From Nitrospirota bacterium (GTDB taxonomy: Bacteria > Nitrospirota > UBA9217): a stretch of DNA of 64,000 bases. Shown one piece after another: positions 4,082-61,815 of the stretch. The translations under genes and the position numbers were made by a program. The stretch is taken from NCBI GenBank assembly GCA_963818475.1, contig CAWFSF010000006.1:64001-128000 (forward strand). The letters run 5' to 3'. The notes beneath the pieces were generated by a model. It was not told where the DNA came from. It saw only the letters and a list, made by a program, of their open reading frames with translations, and did no database searches. Position 1 is the first letter of the stretch; every line of letters starts with the position of its first letter.

Positions 4082-4401
4082 ATGAAGATGATCAGAGCGT
4101 TCATCAGACCCGAGAAGGAACAGGAAGTGGTGTTGGCTTTGGAAGGCGCGGGGTTTCCGTCGCTTACCAAGGTGCCGGTATTCGGGAGGGGAAAACAGAA
4201 GGGCTTGACCGTCGGGCCGGTGCATTATGACGAGCTGCCGAAGGTGCTTATCATGACGGTCGTGGACGACAATGACCTCGACAAGGTCATGAAGGTGATA
4301 CAGGACAAGGCCCGGACGGGTTTCATCGGCGACGGCAAGATCTTCATCAGCCCGGTGGAGAGCCGCCTATACGGTCAGGACCGGAGAAGCGAGGCTTGTA
4401 G
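4082..4401 (+). CDS. nifI1: PII-family nitrogenase regulator NifI1 (frameshift near 3' end; expected end ..AYTVRTGE..)
   Basis: [36 protein letters not shown]; followed by a second PII gene. Confidence 0.85.
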
Positions 4402-7022: not shown

Positions 7023-7083
7023 CCATCACGACGCGGGTGACGCGCCGCCTTTCGGCGCGTCGCTGTGGACCGGCATGTTGGCT
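7023..7083 (-). other. attC site with degenerate R' (end of two-cassette array)
   Basis: Minus strand AGCCAAC ..CAGCGACGCGCC-GAAAGGC-GGCGCGTCA.. GTGATGG just downstream of the HEPN ORF; same family as the attC at 19274. Confidence 0.65.
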
Positions 7084-7096
7084 TTCAAAGATGTTT

Positions 7097-8539
7097 CTAT
7101 TTTATGAAATTTTTCTTCAAAAAATAATCATCTGGCAGAGGTCGATCTGGTATTGTCCTAAAAGGACGCTCAGAAAAATTTAATATCCGTAGTAATATTC
7201 TTTCAAACAAAATCCTCAACCGTTCTTTTTCCAGTATTATCTGTTGACTTTCTTTAAAATCGATTTTACCTTTATGAAAAAGCTCATTTCTGATCGGTAT
7301 AAAGTCAAACAGCTTGTCAGGCTCTAAATCGCCAGTGGTAAGATGCAAGTCTGATAGGAGAGATAAAAGAATAGATTTAAATGATGGATTGTAAAGGTCG
7401 GGAATCTTATCGCTTATGTTATTGATAATTCCGCTATCAATATCATTTTTATTTCCGAATGAATTAATTGTCTCATTTAATAGTGTACGGAGTTTCTTCT
7501 GCTGATTAGCGCTGAGTTTAAATCTCTCTCTATTGTTATCGAGATAAGAATCTTTAATCGCTTCAAGTGCCGTACATAATGACATGAAACTCGATTCAAA
7601 TGTTTCTCGTTCTATGGCAGATATGTACATCCAAATTGATTCATAAAGATTGTATTTATTCTTTATTGAAAGATAAACAGGAAACGATTTTTGAATAAAG
7701 AAATGCCAGTCCTGAAACCGCTCAAAAATAGTATCCCTATAATCGCTTTTATAGAGGACCCTTTTTTGTCCGTTTAAACATTCTCCGTGATAAACAATCT
7801 TATCGTCTTGTCCGTTTTGATTTGCACCGAAAACCAAATATTTATATTTATAGCAATTAATTCTCTTTTTGGACGAGAACGACAATAATGTTCTAAAATC
7901 TTCGATCAGATCAATTGCTCTTTTGATGTCCGCTTCGATATTTGTAGGCTTGTTGATTGTTACAATGAGCGTCTGTTCAATAAATTCGAACGAACCTTTT
8001 ATCGATTCAAGCTCATGTTCGATGTAATCAAAATTAAGATCTATCTCGATTTTCTGGCCATCTTCTTCATATAATTTCAAGATGCCGTCGCTATCTTTTC
8101 TATATCGGTTGCCATTCCAATGCGGTTCTAGCCAAATAGGGGGATAGAATATGTTGTGATAATTTATGTAGAAGTAGAAAATTACAGATTTAATCTCTTC
8201 GGCTTGTGGAATCGGATCATCAGCATTGTCTTCAAATATATTAGCTTCAAAGTAAAATTTTCTTACTTCTCCACCGTGATGGCCCTGAAGGCGGCATTTG
8301 GTAATTCTGTAACTGTTTGCATATTTTCTCTGGAATACTGGTTCGAGATTAAAGTAATAACTGAATATACTCTTGTCTTCTCTAAGGTTTTTTTCAGTCG
8401 CATCATCGCATATAAAATAACCTTTAATCGGCCCATGGGATAACAAGTCAATCTCAAGAAAGCATTTGACATTAGGTACGGTTTTGTCAGGCCAAATAGC
8501 ATTTCCCTGAAAATCTATTTTTCTTATTCTCATGTTCAT
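7097..8539 (-). CDS. ApeA-like HEPN domain protein (candidate anti-phage RNase), integron cassette
   Basis: AT-rich 480-aa ORF with LCTALEA and C-terminal RNELFH (Rx4H) HEPN motif; bounded by GTTAGCT..AGCCAAC. Confidence 0.7.
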   Translation of the reverse strand: MNMRIRKIDFQGNAIWPDKTVPNVKCFLEIDLLSHGPIKGYFICDDATEKNLREDKSIFSYYFNLEPVFQRKYANSYRITKCRLQGHHGGEVRKFYFEANIFEDNADDPIPQAEEIKSVIFYFYINYHNIFYPPIWLEPHWNGNRYRKDSDGILKLYEEDGQKIEIDLNFDYIEHELESIKGSFEFIEQTLIVTINKPTNIEADIKRAIDLIEDFRTLLSFSSKKRINCYKYKYLVFGANQNGQDDKIVYHGECLNGQKRVLYKSDYRDTIFERFQDWHFFIQKSFPVYLSIKNKYNLYESIWMYISAIERETFESSFMSLCTALEAIKDSYLDNNRERFKLSANQQKKLRTLLNETINSFGNKNDIDSGIINNISDKIPDLYNPSFKSILLSLLSDLHLTTGDLEPDKLFDFIPIRNELFHKGKIDFKESQQIILEKERLRILFERILLRILNFSERPFRTIPDRPLPDDYFLKKNFIK

Positions 8540-8564
8540 CGATCAACTCGAGTTTGCTTCTTTG

Positions 8565-8633
8565 AGCTAACGATAATTTGTGGGGCGCGAGCCGCATTGT
8601 GGCGAAGCGTCCCATACGAAATTTTTGTTATGC
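8565..8633 (-). other. attC site
   Basis: Minus strand GCATAAC..imperfect palindrome..GTTAGCT, 69 bp, between two co-oriented ORFs. Confidence 0.8.
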
Positions 8634-8654
8634 GGCTCAAGGATGTTGCAAGGT

Positions 8655-9017
8655 TCACTTGCACAACATGCTATCGAAATAGACTAGAAGCTGTGTTACA
8701 CCCTGATCACCCACAGATATCCATTCAAAGCTATTAAGAACGTAAGCGTTTCCGCCGTCTATTCGAACCCATTCGTCAATTCCTGCCGCCCCATTTTGCA
8801 AATCACCTTCAACGGTTAAACCAATTGGAGCGATGTACTTTCGTCCTGCGACTTGTAACTTGCAGCTGCCGTCTCGAACTGCCTCACTCGCCCGTGCCCG
8901 ATCATAAAACCTAGACATTGTTGAGTTGGGGAATTTTTCCATGAATTGACTAGGCGTCATTGACGTTGCACAACTGACGATCGCAAAAGCAAATATGCAC
9001 AGAAATATACGACTCAT
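8655..9017 (-). CDS. Hypothetical lipoprotein, integron cassette
   Basis: GGAGG RBS, MSRIFLCIFAFAIVSC lipobox; cassette ends GTTATGCGGC / GCCGCATAAC are complementary. Confidence 0.7.
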   Translation of the reverse strand: MSRIFLCIFAFAIVSCATSMTPSQFMEKFPNSTMSRFYDRARASEAVRDGSCKLQVAGRKYIAPIGLTVEGDLQNGAAGIDEWVRIDGGNAYVLNSFEWISVGDQGVTQLLVYFDSMLCK

Positions 9018-9399
9018 TTTAAGCCTTCCTCCCGGCTGCGACCCCAACACGTTACTGTAAGCGTGGATTTCCAACGCCCAAATTTTCTTGCCGCATAACC
9101 AGTGTTTATCTAGCCGCAGCTAAGTCGTAAAACACGGAATTTCGTATTTTACCAGCCTAGTAAAAACGATGCCCTAAGCAGTGCTTATATGTGCGGAACT
9201 TTATCATTGAATATATGCAAAGTCAACGATTGACGTTGCTATGTGCTCACTACCGAAAAGTTCTGGCTGGGTGTGGTGTTCTGCGCCTGAACGCGCCCTG
9301 ATCATCTAACCTGTCTGAAAAACATGCAATTGCTTTCGTTTCGAGCAGGGCTTTCTTTTTCCCTTCCTTTATCCTCCTTTAAAAACAACGATCACCCCG

Positions 9400-15335: not shown

Positions 15336-15391
15336 ACATAACGACGAGTTCACACGCCGCGAAGCGGTCGGCGTGGAACGACGTGTTATTG
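15336..15391 (-). other. attC site (family A)
   Basis: Minus strand CAATAAC..TTCCACGCCGACCGCTTCGCGGCGTGTGAACTC..GTTATGT. Confidence 0.85.
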
Positions 15392-15986: not shown

Positions 15987-16037
15987 AAATAACGACGAGT
16001 TCACACGCCGCGAAGCGGTCGGCGTGGAACGACTCGT
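15987..16037 (-). other. attC site (family A) interrupted at R'' by a group II intron
   Basis: Same 36-bp core as 15336 and 20341; the expected GTT on the plus strand stops after GT, where the intron begins. Confidence 0.85.
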
Positions 16038-16485
16038 GTACGCCCGGCACGGGCGTGAACTTATGGGGTGCAAGTCCCCTGTACGAGAACCAACAGTAGC
16101 ACAAGTACTAGCCCAAGGCAAGGGCGGAAGGGCGACCGACCGTCTGAAGGAAGCCTAAGGCGAACGTGCGAGCCGACGAACAGAAACCGCATACAAGGCT
16201 CAGTCCCTGAAGCAAGTCAGCACTACATGACGAAGCCCACCGGTTCAGGGGATAGGGCAAATGCGGCGGTTGTGCACGGAAAGTTCACGTTCTTATCCGG
16301 GGAGATCTGCGCGACGTGCGATAGGATCGTTATGAGAGAATCCGGGACGGGTCAACCCGGCAACCAAGGCCCAGGCATATCCGTTCGCTGTCAGCGGATA
16401 TGAGTCCCTACAGGGGAAACACGCATGGCAGCGGGTCAAAGCAAACATGGTAAGGAGCAGCCGGCATCGATGAAATGTCGATAAC
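16038..16485 (+). mobile_element. Group IIC-attC intron, 5' ribozyme fragment (no RT ORF, no domain V/VI)
   Basis: Starts GTACGCCCGGCACGGGCG..GGGGTGCAAGTCCCCT; contains AAATGCGGCGGTTGTGCACGGAAAGTTCACGTTCTTATCCGGGGAGATCTG; inserted in the attC bottom strand, antisense to the cassettes. Confidence 0.8.
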
Positions 16486-17458
16486 GGAGCATACAGGGTC
16501 AGGAGCATACAGGGTCAGGAGCATACAGGGTCAGAGCATACAGGTCTTGAATTATCACTTTTCCTCAAAATTCTTTATTGCCTTGCTTACCGTAGTATAG
16601 TGAATTCCGAGATGGTCCGCAATCTCTTTCAGGGTATATCCATGTTTAACAAAGGCAGAATGCATGCATTTGTTTCTTCTGCTCGCGCTGTCCTGTTTGC
16701 AAGCAATTTAGACAGGCTGGGTCTGCTCACATATCGCTGGGACCTCGGAATCTCCTTTACCTGCTCTTTATCGCTCAAAAGGTCTTTATACTTATCGATG
16801 AAGCCTTCTTCTCCTAAGAGCACCTGTCCCTGAAGATCAGCCCACGGCGAACCCTTTTGGATTCCTTCACTGACGAACTGGCGGTAGCGTTTTTGCGCCT
16901 CTGCTTTTTTCCTGCTGAAAAGGCCGAGTACCCAGTCTACGGTAAGACAGCCGGGCACTTTTATGAGGCCCGCAGTGGCTCCATAACTGCTCCATTTCCA
17001 TTCTTCAGGCTTATCAACCATATTAGCTCTCACCGGATTCAATACCACATACCGGCACAGTTCTAAAAGGTAGTTCTCTTTTTCCACGAGAATGGCCTTG
17101 TATCGTCCCTGGAAGATGTGACCGGTCTTGCTGTGCCACCAGTTGTATTTCTGGGTATAGACGCCGTTGAGTTGCCGCATGCCACGGGACAGATTGGCAT
17201 CCGGGGTCTCAATCATAAGGTGGTAGTGGTTGTCCATGAGGCAATAGGCATGACACAGCCAGTTGTACCGCTTCACGACAGAATCGAGGACCGACAGAAA
17301 ATTCTCTCTGTCCTGATCGCCGAGGAATATCTTGCCTCGTGCATTGCCACGGGAGGTAACATGATAAACGGCATTTGGGTATTCAATTCTCAGTGGTCTT
17401 GTCATAATGTTACCTTACTATTTGCTCCTGCTATTTGCTCCCTGACCCTATTTGCTCC
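16486..17458. mobile_element. RAYT/Y1-HUH element bounded by reiterated imperfect inverted repeats
   Basis: Left end (GGAGCATACAGGGTCA)x3; right end reverse complement GGAGCAAATAGGGTCAGG with three CTATTTGCTCC copies. Confidence 0.7.
16555..17405 (-). CDS. REP-associated tyrosine transposase (Y1 HUH) with C-terminal HTH; frameshift near 16670
   Basis: MTRPLRIEYP..YHVTSRGN, AYCLMDNHYHL, FQGRY, YVVLNPVRA, WSSY; shifted frame GYTLKEIADHLGIHYTTVSK. Confidence 0.9.
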
Positions 17459-18355
17459 CTAAGGGCGTTCATCCGGCAAAACCTGTTTTTCTCCCGGTGG
17501 GGCCGTCGCGGCAGTTTCTTTATTTCCATGGAAGATATACCAGGCAAGATTCGAAGCCAGTCGACCGATCGCAACATCCATTTCAGCCTGCACCGCCGCC
17601 CATTGCCCGGCTGACCAGGCATCGAGGCTTCTGGTTGATTCGCCGTTCTCGCACCGTTCCGCCTGGTACAAGACGCTGTTGTCACGAGTGTCCGTCAGTT
17701 TCACCTCCGCGCATGCCTTGAGCGCCAGTTCCGATTCGAGATTCTTTCCCGACAGCGCGACCACGAAACGATCGACTTCCAGAACGGCATCCGCTCCCTT
17801 TGCCGCAAGATCGCGATAGTCTCCCTCGGGCCGCCGGTCGATCAGCCGAATTCCTTCCCGCTCCTGAACGCATGACCGGCGATGCCTTCCTGGGGCGCAT
17901 AGAGCTTCTGCTCAAAAAGCGCGACGGTGCGGTCCCGCTCGGGAAGGTACTGCGCAAGCCCTTTCTTCGCGCGGTCCACATCTTCCGCCGAAGGCGAGCC
18001 GACAGCACCTGCTATGGCTCCGCCGATCCCGACGACCGGCGTAAGTGCCGCACAGACTAGGATAACTCCTATACCAACGATAGCACCTAGATCAGAACTT
18101 CCAAGAGACCCCGCCTGGTGCACCAGACCATAAACTGCCGACCGCCGATCCGGCGCTCTTGCCCGCGCCTTCGCCTTTGCTGCCCGGCATTCCCCGTATC
18201 CCGCTTGCCACGGGTGACGACGCAATGACCACTGCCACGATGTGAGGACTGCGTTCGTACAGGGTCGGTCCATGAGGAACGCACCCGGAAGGGAAGATGA
18301 GCAATAGAATGAGTATGGGAAAGATAGTTAGCCCAACAATGCTTCGATGATCCAT
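17459..18355 (-). CDS. Hypothetical lipoprotein (several frameshifts)
   Basis: GGAGG RBS, MDHRSIVGLTIFPILILLLIFPSGC lipobox; continues through the 17842 and 17459 ORFs. Confidence 0.55.
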
Positions 18356-18370
18356 TCGGCCTCCTGTGGC

Positions 18371-18404
18371 TCCTGGCGCGTCGGACTCGACCCGCAGGTT
18401 AAAA
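18371..18404 (-). other. Partial attC site (R'' and left arm only)
   Basis: Minus strand TTTTAAC-CTGCGGGTCGAGTCCGACGCGCC; R'' is complementary to the GTTAAAA that opens this cassette. Confidence 0.55.
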
Positions 18405-19273: not shown

Positions 19274-19332
19274 TTTTAACGCGGCGCTGACGCGCCGACT
19301 TTGGCGCGTCGCTGTCGAGCGCCAGGTTGTGA
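19274..19332 (-). other. attC site (family B)
   Basis: Minus strand TCACAAC..CAGCGACGCGCC-AAAGTC-GGCGCGTCAG..GTTAAAA, 59 bp. Confidence 0.85.
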
Positions 19333-20340: not shown

Positions 20341-20396
20341 AGACAACGCGGAGTTCACACGCCGCGAAGCGGTCGGCGTGGAACGATTTGTTATTA
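20341..20396 (-). other. attC site (family A)
   Basis: Minus strand TAATAAC..same 36-bp core..GTTGTCT. Confidence 0.85.
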
Positions 20397-20427
20397 ATTA
20401 ATTTATTTACTCTAGTTCTCTAAATAT

Positions 20428-21396
20428 TTAACCTTTTACAGTTTTAATTTTCTCTAATTTATTTAATAATTCATTTTTACTGTTATTGTACCTATCTGGA
20501 ACTTCTTTTATGACGTTAATTGCTTCTTCTTTAGATGACGAATCTATTTGAGATAACTCGCCTAATGTTTCGGATATCTGTTCTAAGTAAGTATCGTAAT
20601 CCCTATCTTCATCTGGATGTTTCAACAGAAGCTCTAATTCCTCTACCTGTGCGGACAGGGCATTTTCCATTATCCCGCGAAACTTCCAAGTATAGAACTC
20701 GTTTCTTGCAACGTTCCGGCTGACCATGTCGATTCTTTTAGATATAAGATTTCTTAATTTCTCTTCAGTACTTTTAATCTTATTGTTGACGTTATCAATT
20801 TGATTTTTAATATTATCACTTAGTGTCGAAACTTCTTGTCGATAGCTTTTATTGAATGACTCAAGTTGCGTTTGATAATTATTTAATAGCGACTTATTGT
20901 CTTCTTTTATTTCTGCTCTTACTTTTTCGTGAAATTCACTATTTTTTGCGGTCAAATCCGCAATACTTGCGGACATCTCACCTTGAAGTTTAATTTGTAG
21001 CTCATTTAGTAACGCTGTTTTTTCGGCTGCAAAGGCACTCATTCTCATTGCCACTTCATTAAGTGCCGCATTCTTTGCTTCATTTATTTGTGCATTAATT
21101 CCATTTCGCATGTCAACCACTTTCTTTTCATTGAACCACCAGTTACTTGCAAACACCAAAACAATTGCCGTGGCAAGCCCCCCTAAGGCATAAAATATAG
21201 TTTTGAGAATCGCATCGTTTGATTTAACCTGATTATCATAAAGCATGCGATATGCTTTGGCTTCATTAAGGCCATTAGGATCGTTAAGTTGAGTAGAGGA
21301 ATTGGGCAGTTTGTCCTTGTTAGCATAAACAGGATTATTGACACCGATGATGATTGAGAAGACCAAGAACGTAAATACGTAGACGGTATATTTCAT
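20428..21396 (-). CDS. Hypothetical membrane-anchored coiled-coil protein, integron cassette
   Basis: AAGGAG RBS, signal peptide, one TM segment, long heptad-rich region; AT-rich. Confidence 0.7.
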   Translation of the reverse strand: MKYTVYVFTFLVFSIIIGVNNPVYANKDKLPNSSTQLNDPNGLNEAKAYRMLYDNQVKSNDAILKTIFYALGGLATAIVLVFASNWWFNEKKVVDMRNGINAQINEAKNAALNEVAMRMSAFAAEKTALLNELQIKLQGEMSASIADLTAKNSEFHEKVRAEIKEDNKSLLNNYQTQLESFNKSYRQEVSTLSDNIKNQIDNVNNKIKSTEEKLRNLISKRIDMVSRNVARNEFYTWKFRGIMENALSAQVEELELLLKHPDEDRDYDTYLEQISETLGELSQIDSSSKEEAINVIKEVPDRYNNSKNELLNKLEKIKTVKG

Positions 21397-21409
21397 ATTC
21401 ACTCCTTCA

Positions 21410-21464
21410 GAATAATGTTTAGGCTTCTTTCTGAACGCATTATTCAGAAAGAAGCTGGTTGGAC
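21410..21464 (-). other. attC-like hairpin at the end of the IS91-like element (R' reads ATTATTC)
   Basis: Minus strand GTCCAAC-CA-GCTTCTTTCTGAA-TAATGCG-TTCAGAAAGAAGC-CTAAAC-ATTATTC; perfect 13-bp stem. Confidence 0.6.
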
Positions 21465-21742
21465 TAAGCCGGTACGCGCTAACCGGCTATGGGATTTCTA
21501 AAGATTGGTCCTGCTTTTTAGAATTATGCTGAGAGTTCTGGAAGGGGCTTGGAGACAGTTGCGGGATTGATTTCAGTGAAAAGCGGCGATTCCGGACAGT
21601 TCCGCAAGCCCCTATTTGTCACGACTATACAGGAAACAGGACTCTCGGGCAATAGGATATCGTTGCGAAAAACAAGTCTGTTTTCGGTCAGGGTTGGCGT
21701 TACTCTTTTTTTCTCTTTCATGTCGTTCATTCTATTCCGGCA

Positions 21743-22410
21743 TCAAGGCCCGTTGCATCGCGCGGGCCGGAGTATTTCCCTCGTTTGCATTTTGCCTTCT
21801 TTGCAGACGGGGCATTTGGTGATATCTATGCCGGTGAACCTTAACAACGCTTCCTGCCAGGTCTCCTTGATTTTGTCGTCCTCTTTGGGTGTGCAGGCAA
21901 GAAACTGACGACAGGCGGCAAGTTTCTCCTTGCGGCAGCGATTGCCCAGAAGGCCGTAATGTCTGATTTTCACGAACCGGTCAGGAAGGACGTGAAGTAG
22001 GAACCGCCGGATGAACTCCTCGGCTTTCAGGGGCATGATTTTGGTTTTGTTCCCGTCCGAGTAGTCGCGCCACCGGAAAGAGACTTCATCGTCTTCGAAC
22101 TTCATAATTCGGTGATTGCTGATCGCGATCCGGTGAGTGTATCTGCCGAGATACTCCAGAACGTCCTTGGTATGCTTGAAAGGCGTTTTGCAGTAGACGA
22201 CCCAGTTCTTCTTGTACAGGTCTGAGATCAGGGCATTAAAGGCCCCCGGCGACGCAAGGTGGCTTACGGCGCCGGGGTAAATGAGTTTGTTCTCAGCACG
22301 GAGCTTTTTCAGATAAGCGATAAACTTCCCTCGAAAGAGCTTCGACATCACCTTGACGTGGACGAAGAAGTCCTTCTTGCATGACTTCCATTTCCGTCCT
22401 TCCTTTGCCA
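21743..22410 (-). pseudogene. IS91-family (Y2 HUH) transposase, 5'-truncated
   Basis: LFRGKF, WVVYCK, LEYLGRYTHRIAIS (Y2), FIRRFLLHVLP..IRHYG, CPVC; the HUH motif and N-terminal Zn domain are missing. Confidence 0.88.
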
Positions 22411-22716
22411 TCATGGGTCGCTCCCCTGCATCGCGGCGGGAGAAAGTACAATGAATGGTGGAGTCTGGAGCGGACGAAATCACCTGCATGGGACGAGGTG
22501 ATCGATAAGCTGGCTGATGAGATCAAAACGCGGCATTATTCACGAAAAACACTCAAGGCCTACGCCGACTGGTGCCGCAAGTTTCAGATCCATTTGAAAG
22601 ATAAGTCGCCGGATGATCCTTCCGCGACGGACGTGAAGGCCTATCTTACCTATCTTGCGGTGACGTGCAAGGTATCGGCAAATGCGATAAGGCCGAAAGA
22701 TGTGAATAATCTATAA
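22411..22716 (+). pseudogene. intI: Integron integrase fragment (N-terminal SAM-like domain only)
   Basis: IKTRHYSRKTLKAYADW..DVKAYLTYLAV..KVSA, then diverges before the expected STQNQA; oriented away from the cassette array. Confidence 0.75.
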
Positions 22717-49989: not shown

Positions 49990-51147
49990 ATGCCTGCGGA
50001 GTCCTCGGTGGAAGAACGGTTGATCGTAGCCGTGGTGAAAGATTTTGCATCGAAGCGTTTGTCGCTGGTCAGTCAAGATGCAGATGCTCTGGGGACATGG
50101 CCTAAAGAAACGGTGAAGGAAATGGCTCGCCTGGGATTGTTCGGGGCCATCATCCCTCAGGCATATGGCGGGTCCTTCAGCAGCTATCACCTGTACTACA
50201 GGATAATTAACGAAATAGCCAAAGTATGCGCTTCGCATGCACTTATCCTGCTGTCTCATTCCTTCTGTTCCCATGTCATCGCCGCCTTTGGCACGAGTGA
50301 TCAAAAAGAAAAGTTGTTGCCGAAAATGGCAACGGGGGCATATCTCGGCGCGGTTGCGATGACTGAACCCGATTCGGGCTCGGATCTCGCATCGGTCCGG
50401 ACAAGCGCCACGCCCTGTCAGGAAGGGTTTCTCCTGAAGGGTCATAAACAATTTATTACAAACGGCGGCAACGCTGACGTGATCGTGGTTCTCGCATCCA
50501 CCCTTTCCAAAAACCCTCTCTTCAATAAGAGTTTGATCATAGTTGAGAAACCTCTTGCGGGCTGCACGACGGGAATGAGCGAGAGCAAGATGGGTTTTCG
50601 CGCAGTGGATACTACTGAATTATTCTTTGACGATGTGATCGTAAAAAAAGAGGCGCTCCTCGGCAAGGAAGGACAGGGCCTGCTCCTGATTATGAAGGGC
50701 CTTAATTGTTCCCGATTGGCCAGCGCGGCGCTAGCTCTCGGGATTGCCCAGTCGGCGCATGGGGAAGGGGCGCGCTATGCCAGACAGCGCAAACAATTCG
50801 GGAAACCGATCTCCGAATTTCAGGCGATTCAGCAATACCTGGCGGACAATGAAACTGAATTGGAATGCGCGCAGCTCTTGTTGAATAATGCCGCGATCAA
50901 ACAGGATCGTGGAGAGAATACGGAAGCATATTCCGCAATGACCAAGTATTACTGCTCGGAAACCGCGCTCCGCGTTGTGACACGGGCAATGCAGATTCAT
51001 GGCGCCTATGGCTACATCAAGAGGCTCCCCATTGAGAGACACTATCGGGATGTGAGGCTCTGTACGATCATCGAGGGGACCAGTGAGGTCTTGCGCCCCC
51101 TCATTGCGAAGCATGCCTGTGGAAGTATCGCGACAGGTCTTTCATGA
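49990..51147 (+). CDS. Acyl-CoA dehydrogenase family protein
   Basis: MTEPDSGSD, KQFITNG, RKQFGKPI..FQ, QIHGAYGY, IIEGTSE. Confidence 0.92.
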   Translation: MPAESSVEERLIVAVVKDFASKRLSLVSQDADALGTWPKETVKEMARLGLFGAIIPQAYGGSFSSYHLYYRIINEIAKVCASHALILLSHSFCSHVIAAFGTSDQKEKLLPKMATGAYLGAVAMTEPDSGSDLASVRTSATPCQEGFLLKGHKQFITNGGNADVIVVLASTLSKNPLFNKSLIIVEKPLAGCTTGMSESKMGFRAVDTTELFFDDVIVKKEALLGKEGQGLLLIMKGLNCSRLASAALALGIAQSAHGEGARYARQRKQFGKPISEFQAIQQYLADNETELECAQLLLNNAAIKQDRGENTEAYSAMTKYYCSETALRVVTRAMQIHGAYGYIKRLPIERHYRDVRLCTIIEGTSEVLRPLIAKHACGSIATGLS

Positions 51148-51215
51148 ATGCGGACCATCACCTGCACTGAAGATACCGAGCGCTGAAGAGCAGCCGTTTT
51201 ATCAACGAGGCATAC

Positions 51216-52763
51216 ATGGACAAGCGTCTCACATTGCTCTGCCCTAATCTGGACCCGCGCAACGATCAAGCTGCAATCTATGAAAAGGGCCGGACCATAA
51301 CTTTCGGCGAGTTGGCCGGAGGAGTCGGCAACTTATCTGACAATATCGTGAGCGCTGGCGCAGTTCGGGGCAGTCGAATCGCTCTCTGCTACGACAATAC
51401 GGCTGCTTTTGTTTACGGGTATTTGGCTATCCTCGGAGCAGAGTGCATCCCGGTGCTCCTGAGCCCTAACCTCCCCGCCGAGAAGTTATCGTACATTCTC
51501 GCTGATAGTGGCGCAGCCGGCATGATGTGCGAATCCAGAGTAGTGGGCAGGATACCGTCGTACCCCCGCGGCATGAAATTTCTATTTTCCCCTGATGTCC
51601 GTGAGGCTGCAAGTCTGCGCGGGATCGCGGTCTACTCTTTCGACGAAGGAATCAGCTCGAAGAGGATCCCCGTTGACAACGGCGCTGTCCAGGAGCGGTA
51701 CGCTGAAGCGCAGCCTCAAAACGCTCACTCAATTAGTGCAGTTATTTATACGTCCGGGACGACCGGTAAACCGAAGGGAGTTATGCTCAGCGAGGTGAAT
51801 CTGGAACTTGCTACGGCGACGATTATCCGGCACCTGGGTCTTACCTCGGAGGATTCATGTCTTGTTGCTATGAGTTTTGCGCACTGCGCCGGCCTGCTGC
51901 ACATGCTTGCACACTTGCGTGCCGGGGCAAAACTGGTCACCGGTGAAACAGTTGCATTGATCGGACAATTTCTGGCCGCGATAAAAAAACATCGAGTGAC
52001 CATCTTCCCCGCGGTGCCGTCGTTCTTTACGCTCTTGACGAAACATCCCAAACAGAAGGTGAAACCCTATCTGAGCACCGTGCGCGCCGTTGAATCTTCC
52101 AGTGCGATGATAAACAGTTCGTTGATTCGAGAAGTCGCAGATCTTTACCCCTGCGCTACGCTGTTCAACACCTATGGATTGACCGAGGCTCCAAGAACTA
52201 CCTACGCGGTCGTGGATCCTTCCGATGCAACTACCTGTCTCTCTGTGGGGCATGCGACTTCCGGCGTCGCTGTAAAAGTTGTCAATGACCATTCCCAGCG
52301 GTGCCTGCCGTACGAAGAAGGAGAGATTGTCGTGGACGGGGCCAATGTGGCATTGGGGTATTGGAACAATTCTGAGAAGACCTCTGCGGCATTCGGGCCT
52401 CTCGGCTTCAGGACCGGCGATATCGGCTACACGGACCACAAGGGACTTTTGTACCTGAAGGGAAGGCGAGACGATATGATCAAGATCGGCGCCGAAGCCG
52501 TGTCCCCGCATGAGGTAGAAGAGGTCATCGGATCGCATCCGGGTGTTGCGGACGTGTTGGCCTATGGAGTAGAGGATGATATCCGGGGCTCGATAATACA
52601 TGTGCAGGTAGTTCGCAAAGACGGGTCTATTGACGAAGAAGCTCTATTTGATTATTGCTGCGGGAGGCTTGAGAAGCATAAGCTCCCTTCCCATATCAGC
52701 TTCCATGATTCCATCGCCGTGGAAGAATCAGGAAAGCCAAAGAGGAACAAAGCGACAGTATGA
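51216..52763 (+). CDS. Adenylate-forming (AMP-binding) enzyme
   Basis: YTSGTTGKPKG, YGLTE, TGD, SGK. Confidence 0.9.
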   Translation: MDKRLTLLCPNLDPRNDQAAIYEKGRTITFGELAGGVGNLSDNIVSAGAVRGSRIALCYDNTAAFVYGYLAILGAECIPVLLSPNLPAEKLSYILADSGAAGMMCESRVVGRIPSYPRGMKFLFSPDVREAASLRGIAVYSFDEGISSKRIPVDNGAVQERYAEAQPQNAHSISAVIYTSGTTGKPKGVMLSEVNLELATATIIRHLGLTSEDSCLVAMSFAHCAGLLHMLAHLRAGAKLVTGETVALIGQFLAAIKKHRVTIFPAVPSFFTLLTKHPKQKVKPYLSTVRAVESSSAMINSSLIREVADLYPCATLFNTYGLTEAPRTTYAVVDPSDATTCLSVGHATSGVAVKVVNDHSQRCLPYEEGEIVVDGANVALGYWNNSEKTSAAFGPLGFRTGDIGYTDHKGLLYLKGRRDDMIKIGAEAVSPHEVEEVIGSHPGVADVLAYGVEDDIRGSIIHVQVVRKDGSIDEEALFDYCCGRLEKHKLPSHISFHDSIAVEESGKPKRNKATV

Positions 52764-60735: not shown

Positions 60736-61815
60736 GTGAATAAAATTATGATTACCGGAGCGGCCGGTTTTATCGGATTCCATCTATCGCGAAAATTGCT
60801 CGAACAAGGCGTTGAGGTGACCGGCATCGATAATTTAAACGATTATTACGATGTGAATCTCAAGCGAGCACGACTGTCGACCCTCGAAGAGCATAAGAAT
60901 TTTACATTCATGCGGGCCAGCGTGTCGGACCGGATGGCCGTAGATGAGCTGTTTAGAAAGGGCAGATTCGATTGCGTGGTGAATTTGGCGGCCCAGCCTG
61001 GTGTTCGTTACTCCTTAAAGAACCCTTATTCCTACATCGACAGCAACATTGTCGGTTTCACGAACATTCTGGAAGGCTGCCGGCACAATCATGTCAAACA
61101 TCTCGTTTTCGCCTCTTCAAGCTCGGTCTACGGAGCCAATGCCAAAATACCCTTCTCGGTCAGTGATAATGTGGACCATCCTTTTTCACTCTATGCAGCG
61201 TCCAAAAAAGCGAACGAGCTGATGGCGCATACCTATGCACATTTATACGGTCTGCCGTGCACCGGCCTCAGGTTCTTTACGGTCTATGGTCCCTGGGGTC
61301 GTCCGGATATGGCCTATTTTTCCTTCACCAAGGCTATTCTGGAGGGAAAACCCATCGACGTATTCAACAACGGCGACATGAAGCGTGATTTCACCTATAT
61401 CGATGACATTGTTGAAGGGGTCATACGCGTCATGGATAAAATCCCTCGGCCAAATGCCGGCTGGGACAGGATAAAGTCCGATCCGGGGTCCAGCCATGCT
61501 CCTTACAAATTGTACAACATCGGCAACAATAACCCTGTTGACCTGTCGAAATTTATCGCGGTATTGGAGTCGAATCTCGGCAAAACTGCAGTAAAGAACA
61601 TGCTTCCCATGCAGCCCGGAGACGTCCCCATTACCTACGCTGATGTGAATGATCTTATACGCGACGTGGGTTTTAAACCATCGACTCCTATCGAGGAGGG
61701 CATTCAAAAATTTGTGGTATGGTTCAAGGAGTATTACGGCTATGGCCTGGATGCTGCAGAAGATACTTTCCACACAGCTCCGATACAGGAACCTGTTCGA
61801 CAACGTGCAGCTTGA
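60736..61815 (+). CDS. UDP-glucuronate 4-epimerase
   Basis: [49 protein letters not shown]. Confidence 0.9.

Follow-up and report, generated by a model that had tools for sequence, protein, structure and literature searches.

Integrons recombine attC sites as folded, single-stranded DNA, and the insertion sequences (ISs) of the IS91 family move as single-stranded circles. Some IS91-family members, such as ISShvi3 in the grouping of ISfinder, have an integrase gene upstream of the transposase gene. Here we describe an element of the same two-gene plan, part of which lies in a stretch of 64,000 nucleotides from a Nitrospirota bacterium (assembly GCA_963818475.1, contig CAWFSF010000006.1, positions 64,001 to 128,000 of the forward strand), referred to below as the window, where it directly precedes an array of gene cassettes. 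Our best joint explanation, in which we place considerable confidence, is that the window holds a dead, 5'-truncated copy of an IS91-family element with a recombinase gene, that this copy was once located at the attI site of an integron, and that its family integrates at G|TT (the bar marking the crossover) via a folded circle.

A target rule of this kind was not described in the literature searched, where there were only passing remarks on ISShvi3 and ISCR28. The passage on ISShvi3 in PMC9229058 consists of one such remark and states no target rule, junction analysis or attI insertions. The passage on ISCR28 in sul4 modules in PMC12772301 likewise makes a passing remark, with data not shown there.

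Structure and conservation of the right end

On the minus strand, positions 22399 to 21416 of the window are the 3' 0.98 kb of a 2.57-kb IS91-family element. The parts of its right end, given here as window positions read on the minus strand, were all found where an earlier note on this DNA had placed them. The stop codon of the transposase gene (21745-21743) is followed after 240 nt, as measured (the note had given about 240), by the conserved motif TTTAGAAATCCCATAG (21502-21487; family consensus TTTGAAATCCCATAG), a small subterminal palindrome (GCCGGT..ACCGGC, 21487-21468), the heptamer GTCCAAC (21464-21458), a second palindrome with a perfect 13-bp stem and a 7-nt loop (arms 21455-21443 and 21435-21423), and ATTATTC (21416-21410). 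The small palindrome folds as a 7-bp hairpin and is part of an internal inverted repeat that matches the left end of the element; GTCCAAC, which resembles an inverse core (R'') box, is the end of that repeat. The letters CA separate GTCCAAC from the long stem, and CTAAAC lies between the stem and ATTATTC, ahead of the ribosome-binding site and start of the first cassette open reading frame (ORF). Homology with seven full copies in the related genome G016 and with 30 other ends stops at A 21416, the last base of the element. The crossover lies between A 21416 and T 21415, and the conserved non-coding right end, presumably the oriIS region, extends from 21742 to 21416.

A 20-nt pattern taken from this end was found at 47 loci in a species-level genome collection. 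The end was complete at 37 of them (38 with the window), almost all in Nitrospirota metagenome-assembled genomes (MAGs); other loci were unrelated (six, for a chance estimate of about nine), cut by the end of a contig (two) or degenerate (three). The motif TTTAGAAATCCCATAG/TTTGAAATCCCATAG was almost invariant across the 22 distinct ends. GTCCAAC was kept in 21 of the 22 and read GCCCAAC in the other, and all thus have the RYYYAAC of the 5' side of an attC. The long stem, which is also present in the G016 copy, was 98.3% paired over the distinct ends, and three of its pairs show compensatory changes on both sides; for the small palindrome, the register was not conserved (50.8% of cells paired). 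Folded as single-stranded DNA, the window end formed two hairpins at -20 kcal/mol (z = -5.5), and none of 200 shuffles was equally good. Based on these fold statistics and the conservation in 37 further ends, the structure is not a product of chance, and the right end is structured and under selection. An Rfam search of the hairpin returned two sub-threshold chance matches only (RF02262).

The hairpin to which the earlier note drew attention therefore lies beyond the transposase gene of an IS91-type element, within its conserved right end. All 38 ends read ...AACATT, three of them with a substitution just before ATT, and the base after TT was a purine in 37. The attC core GTTRRRY was accordingly not found at the 3' side of any end. 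Because the A occurs in 38 of 38 ends, we regard it as a family trait; it is shared by the seven identical, evidently recent copies in G016, and the suggestion that a G to A change had frozen the window copy can be set aside. The note had further taken the hairpin for attC-like. Our attC covariance model R1 (built from 19 local attCs, three from the window and 16 from related loci) gave the integrated end a partial match of 5.8 bits at best, a weak negative result, limited to this local model. In addition, the stem is perfect, without bulges or extrahelical bases, and the end fits the oriIS layout as outlined in PMC13181058.

An A directly before TT was also seen in at least one ordinary attC of these arrays. 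A bona fide attC in the array of the relative G010 (locus L053, 2519-2571; 39.5 bits) has the core ...GCGCG-A-TTCTCC, and a neighbouring attC-like site reads CTT.

The element family and its junctions

A DNA search for the element in 41 genomes (that of the window and 40 relatives) gave matches in nine. The seven matches in G016 cover nearly the whole query, and these copies are alike over about 2.57 kb, their flanks diverging at TTGAAC on the left and AACATT on the right. The gene order of the family is an IntI/Xer-like tyrosine recombinase upstream of a Y2-HUH transposase, and the IntI-like recombinase is always carried. This recombinase matched TIGR02249 with 204 bits (below the cut-off of 265) in two stretches that skip the middle of the model. 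Intact transposases of relatives scored 471-474 bits with NF033538 (IS91 family transposase, cut-off 125) and contained Zn_Tnp_IS91. The family can be written as G|TTGAAC ... GTCCAAC - 13-bp hairpin - CTTAAC-A|TT, followed by the next cassette. Solitary 275-bp ends had been considered as a separate small element; where checked, in G010, they were the ends of more diverged or truncated copies.

The genome of the window contains a second copy on its contig C3 (~50300-52424; L002 and L043), in which an intact 285-aa recombinase is followed by the N-terminus of the transposase. This copy sits at an attI-like site and is truncated at its 3' side, being replaced from about transposase residue 350 by a low-GC ORF of 149 codons, and an attC match (45.7 bits) lies ~1.4 kb downstream. 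The window and C3 copies are complementary halves, with about 500 bp of 99% identical DNA in common (~21893-22396 of the window).

The 5' junctions identified the target of the family. There were ten distinct 5' flanks, with three G016 loci that have the same last 60 nt taken as one flank; counted separately, there were 12 junctions. The base before TTGAAC was G in nine of the ten flanks and A in one. Seven of the 12 junctions were of attI type, one was an attC and four lay elsewhere. On contig C6 of G016, the 5' end of the element was ~210 nt from a divergently transcribed intI. Regions of attI without the element (contigs C79 and C55 of the relative G074, and C2 of the window's genome) were conserved up to ...AACT(G/T)G and diverged from TT on. 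The G074:C79 region adjoins an IntI of 344.5 bits, and the element in G016 starts at the same TT. Three attI copies in G016, 94% and 84% alike, were occupied at the same base, which indicates independent insertions; the copies on C6 and C1 equal the 2,574-nt reference letter for letter, and the C3 copy of G016 gave no exact match. The second copy in the window's genome and L059 had attI-like flanks, as did L080 weakly and L073 by eye over its last ~20 nt. At L072, the 5' flank was an attC (30.3 bits) ending ...GCCGTG|TTGAAC. The 5' junctions at attI and attC, and the R'' complementarity of the downstream cassettes given below, place the crossover as in an attC, between the first and second base of the core triplet, with the next cassette starting from TT.

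One insertion allowed the net change to be determined. The C3 copy of G016 lies inside a gene, and excising it so that a single TT remains gives an open frame of at least 909 codons (265 + 644), both sides of which run to the end of the locus; excision leaving no TT or two TTs breaks the frame. At this one locus, the net insertion was therefore 2,572 bp at G|TT, without target duplication. At L034, L036, L051, L087, L072 and L073, no variant in the same test opened a long frame. In three of the ten distinct flanks, the left end is preceded by CTTG, the classical target of IS91. Neither CTTG nor GTTC was found to adjoin oriIS, where the flanks begin with TT and, at the 37 ends noted above, a purine. 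Taken together, the junctions showed that members of the family enter the crossover point of integrons, G|TT, in a single orientation and duplicate no target sequence.

On the 3' side, many flanks contain an ORF with a ribosome-binding site that begins within 15-35 nt. An attC model match was present downstream on the same strand in 16 of the 38 ends, and two more attC-like sites (L070 and L073) were seen by a structure-based finder or by eye only. This finder was used alongside the model to locate attCs; an energy-density heuristic was dropped, as it missed real sites and gave false ones. The 41 loci contained 30 model matches, of which 26 were downstream of an end of the element on its strand and one followed a degenerate end; the remaining matches were on the opposite strand (two, L047) or directly upstream of a 5' end (one). 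The R'' box of the nearest attC complemented the start of the flank at 36 of 64 variable positions, compared with 322 of 960 for non-cognate pairs. The match was 7/7 in L082, L070 and L073 (by eye in L073) and 6/7 in the window. This complementarity indicates that the A|TT boundary coincides with the cassette boundary, and the right end is joined exactly to the first cassette base in the window and at no fewer than 15 other loci.

An IntI above the TIGR02249 cut-off was found in 26 of the 61 genomes of the bacterial family, compared with all six relatives that have a near-complete end of the element, kin genomes that are not independent. The true IntIs of this Nitrospirota family (L102-L111 and L035:3606-4310) are open frames of ~440-560 codons with an N-terminal extension of ~100-190 residues, and the extension of the G016 IntI has a weak second Phage_int_SAM_4 match (25.8 bits, below cut-off). 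Two further integron loci were observed. Next to the occupied attI on C6 of G016, the intI is interrupted by a ~120-bp insert bounded by terminal inverted repeats (L035, ~4240-4365), similar to a miniature inverted-repeat transposable element. On contig C2 of the window's genome (~440845-442413; L116), an attI-like site without the element is followed by three same-strand attC matches (29-64.5 bits), an integron platform in a genome without a detected intact IntI.

The window locus: gene fragments and cassette array

The transposase gene in the window, called a Y2-transposase by the earlier note, is indeed of the IS91-type Y2_Tnp class; its ORF is only a fragment. The 248-codon ORF at 21743-22489 (minus strand) matches Pfam Y2_Tnp with 173.6 bits, over profile positions 29-181 of 183 only, and aligns with residues 172-394 of an intact 397-aa relative at 73% identity, delimiting a 3' pseudogene fragment at 21743-22399. 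No Pfam match to Zn_Tnp_IS91 was obtained in this fragment. Since the alignment starts at residue 172 of 397, the window transposase is without the zinc-binding domain and the HUH motif; the zinc domain is present in the C3 copy of the same genome and in the G016 and G011 copies. The window copy is dead as a result of 5' truncation.

Directly beyond the element is a plus-strand ORF (22381-22716) that derives from intI and is no part of the IS. Over its residues 15-101 it has 67% identity to the 422-aa IntI of G074:C79 (residues 84-170), the 344.5-bit TIGR02249 match, and it matches Phage_int_SAM_4 as well as TIGR02249 positions 1-63 (42.9 bits). The intI remnant occupies 22423-22683, and both ends of the gene are missing. 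No full IntI over the TIGR02249 cut-off was found in the genome of the window, which is 91% complete, or in the other five genomes of its genus.

A gap of ~25 nt separates the end of the element remnant, at about 22399, from the start of the intI remnant, at about 22423, and no attI lies next to intI at this locus. The geometry, with intI on the plus strand and the element and cassettes on the minus strand, is that of the intact locus on C6 of G016, and attI has presumably been deleted from the window. We propose that the element would once have occupied the attI of a chromosomal integron in this Nitrospirota genome as its first "cassette". A single deletion of about 2 kb would then account for the missing recombinase gene and attI, as well as for the loss of the first 171 codons of the transposase and the first 83 of intI; the 3' part of intI is also lost. 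A 151-nt contig from a public sequencing run spans 22379-22529 without differences, which is weak support for the junction as the run may be the source sample. Contigs from relatives in other runs diverge from the window at 21412-21414 and at 22399. None of the runs contained half of the sequence words, the best share being 0.24.

The array of attC-bounded cassettes is real. It extends on the minus strand from 21415 down to 15336 and contains four attC matches of 35.6-72.7 bits and one weak match (10.1 bits), all in one orientation. The first gene cassette (20347-21415) starts with TTATTC, carries an ORF of 324 codons (20428-21402) and has its own attC at its end (20396-20341, TAATAAC ... GTTGTCT; 53.7 bits, E = 1.9e-13). 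The TAATAAC that the earlier note had read at the end of this cassette is the opening of that attC, and this R'' box complements G+TTATTC at six of seven positions. In the 61 family genomes, no relatives of cassette 1 were found; its attC alone gave matches. The attC of cassette 2 (19274-19332; 72.7 bits) and the last attC of the array (15336-15391; 47.5 bits) were, like that of cassette 1, seeds of the model. Between these two lie an attC whose R'' box ends in CAC (15987-16041; 35.6 bits, E = 6e-8; not a seed) and a degenerate or truncated attC with the R'' box TTTTAAC (18331-18404; by eye, weak at 10.1 bits, E = 3.8), which by eye complements the start of cassette 3, GTTAAAA. Cassette starts in the window therefore complement the R'' box of their own attC.

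Several other features were observed in the window. Inside the array, 16629-17405 (minus strand) encodes an IS200-like Y1 transposase homologue (Pfam Y1_Tnp, 49.8 bits), flanked, by eye, by short tandem repeats near 16500-16560 and 17420-17465; gene and repeats are possibly a transposase associated with repetitive extragenic palindromes (a REP-associated tyrosine transposase) and its repeats. A second small cassette cluster at 7023-9074 (minus strand) has attCs at 8633-8565 (22.9 bits) and 7083-7023 (38.8 bits) that bracket a low-GC ORF of 480 codons without a Pfam family; another orphan ORF lies at 8655-9074. The attC model gave two weak matches on the minus strand of the window besides the six stronger ones; a weak match (13.5 bits, E = 0.34) lies at 61365-61417 (minus strand), in a low-GC stretch near the window end.

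Mechanism and comparison with known systems

The anatomy of the two ends suggests how the element could enter the integron crossover point. In the G016 copy, the 24 nt made up of the left end and four flank bases have 88% complementarity to a stretch ending 48 nt short of the right boundary, and the long hairpin thus lies outside the inverted repeat. The left end has one palindrome and the right end two hairpins, as in the IS91 family. When the ends were joined as a circle, they folded into one long imperfect hairpin of -33 kcal/mol (shuffles, -12.3 +/- 2.6), in which 25 pairs link the two ends, with an asymmetric internal loop, and which is topped by a 14-bp hairpin. In this model, the folded junction resembles a large attC. 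GTCCAAC is complementary at five of seven positions to A+TTGAAC, the predicted junction of the circle; in integrated copies, its pairing with the flank is weak (65%, two of six pairs fixed). We propose that the HUH transposase would produce a single-stranded circle by rolling-circle replication, that in this circle the left end and the internal inverted repeat would pair around the hairpin to give a large attC-like fold, and that a tyrosine recombinase, either the element's own or the host IntI, would carry out a single-strand exchange at [A/G]|TT between the circle and attI, attC or a secondary GTT site. This division of labour is favored because the exact attI crossover has been used repeatedly in diverged attI copies, and because the IntI-like gene is always present in the family and all six relatives with near-complete ends have a true IntI. 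The idea, raised earlier, that the element is packaged as an integron cassette is consistent with this anatomy: TTGAAC follows G, GTCCAAC and the hairpin lead to A|TT, and the 5' end lies on attI and attC crossovers.

The most serious rival is that this is an ordinary IS91-type rolling-circle element whose palindromes are its oriIS, whose transposase alone would do the cutting and joining, at bottom-strand YAA|C (G|TT in the top strand), and whose recombinase gene has another role; the link to integrons would then follow from the shortness of this target, or from HUH enzymes acting well on single-stranded attC and attI DNA. We consider this possible, albeit less probable than its alternative. 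As described in PMC13181058, oriIS in the IS91 family has two palindromes and terIS one, target and ter tetranucleotides are alike and bottom-strand single-stranded circles are functional; here, the bottom-strand letters are GTTCAA at the left end and YAA in the right flank. The lack of target duplication at the G016 C3 locus, the four of 12 insertions outside att sites, one of them inside a gene, and the CTTG in three of ten flanks would all be expected of such an element. However, the tetranucleotide of IS91 adjoins oriIS, downstream of tnpA, and here CTTG is at the other end, where it is part of the attI consensus. The target letters in common, G|TT and a purine only, are too few to account for seven of 12 junctions at exact attI crossovers, and an IntI-like recombinase is always carried by the family. 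A different alternative gives the hairpin an origin outside the element, either as the remnant of a target attC hit by an IS91 core or as a true attC frozen by a G to A change. Two observations invited it, the inverted repeat stopping 48 nt short of the right boundary and the letters CCAACCAGC, which by eye are common to the hairpin module and the local attCs. Nevertheless, the module is identical in seven G016 copies with different flanks, and in the 38 ends it varies with the lineage of the element and not with the locus; together with the invariant A and the failure of the attC model, this contradicts a foreign hairpin in present-day copies and leaves it very improbable.

It has also been suggested that the A|TT end is a docking site, a portable equivalent of attI where either IntI or the recombinase of the element captures cassettes, seeding attC-site clusters that have no integron integrase (CALINs) away from integrons. 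On contig C14 of G016, for which no IntI match was reported, a copy lies beside a histidine-kinase gene and one attC-bounded cassette (72.5 bits) begins exactly at its A|TT. On C1 of G016, the A|TT end of a diverged resident copy adjoins a second copy accompanied by a piece of attI, and attC matches lie downstream of ends in 26 of 30 cases and upstream in one. The same pictures would arise if the element inserted at attI, or if element and cassette moved into a secondary site as a two-cassette circle. By eye, the 15 nt immediately preceding the C14 copy are similar to the attI end, and the site may be a decayed integron; moreover, no array was demonstrated to have grown at an end of the element. 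We regard docking as improbable. Also doubtful is the full hybrid, in which an HUH-generated circle with an attC-like folded junction is inserted at G|TT by its own recombinase and its A|TT end is a portable attI equivalent that seeds CALINs outside integrons.

Our preferred explanation, a recombinase-bearing IS91-family element that enters G|TT as a folded circle, has several points against it. HUH cleavage of the bottom strand after YAA would give the same junctions, and the ends fit the plan of the IS91 family as outlined in PMC13181058, with two palindromes at oriIS, one at terIS and a bottom-strand GTTC near the left end. Four of the 12 5' junctions were not at recognisable att sites, and 22 of the 38 ends had no detected downstream attC, although six of these 22 flanks were shorter than 700 nt. 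The integrated hairpin end fails model R1, reads ATT instead of GTT and has none of the extrahelical bases of an attC. The attI position of the window copy is derived from its orientation and the C6 locus of G016, as attI itself is absent. Finally, most of the genomes are MAGs, in which misassembly at repeats is possible, and kin genomes are not independent.

An IS91 lineage with an IntI-like recombinase, cassette-like ends and an attI position suggests that two single-stranded DNA systems are mechanistically coupled, and gives the integrase gene of some IS91 members a function that can be tested; if the hybrid were true, that long-unexplained gene would be explained. Alongside IS1111-attC elements and group IIC-attC introns, the family would constitute a third class of parasites specialised on integrons. 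An element located at attI comes between the array and intI with its promoter region, and can therefore silence an integron or lead to its decay, which seems to have occurred at the window locus. In genome annotation, ends and recombinases of this kind can readily be confused with attC sites, attI sites or integron integrases.

Comparison with the IS91 family (IS91, IS801, IS1294 and the ISCR relatives) showed that, in common with it, the element has a Y2-HUH transposase whose N-terminus bears a zinc domain, and inserts without target duplication. Its upstream end has a single palindrome and a GTTC on the bottom strand, its downstream end has two palindromes, and there are copies that have decayed to the downstream end alone. 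It differs from that family in adding an IntI/Xer-like recombinase gene, in its target, which is G|TT at attI, attC and secondary sites and not CTTG or GTTC beside oriIS, and in the 48-nt hairpin module beyond the inverted repeat, with predicted circle ends that pair over 25 bp. Unlike ISShvi3, it comes from Nitrospirota, a different lineage, and unlike the ISCR elements, which are usually without terIS, it has its own recombinase gene. The IS1111-attC group and the group IIC-attC introns, both mentioned in PMC9229058, are similarly specialised on integron recombination sites in one orientation. These differ in using a DEDD transposase, or a reverse transcriptase and a ribozyme, and in inserting inside attC and not at the crossover, without cassette mimicry.

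Like an integron cassette with its attC, the element starts with TT+RRRY after G, has a RYYYAAC heptamer, a palindrome and a crossover before TT at its 3' end, and sits at attI as the first cassette. It departs from a cassette in having ATT and not GTT, in its perfect stem without extrahelical bases, which the 19-attC model misses, in carrying its own mobility genes, and in the complementarity of its ends, which extends over 20 nt instead of 7.

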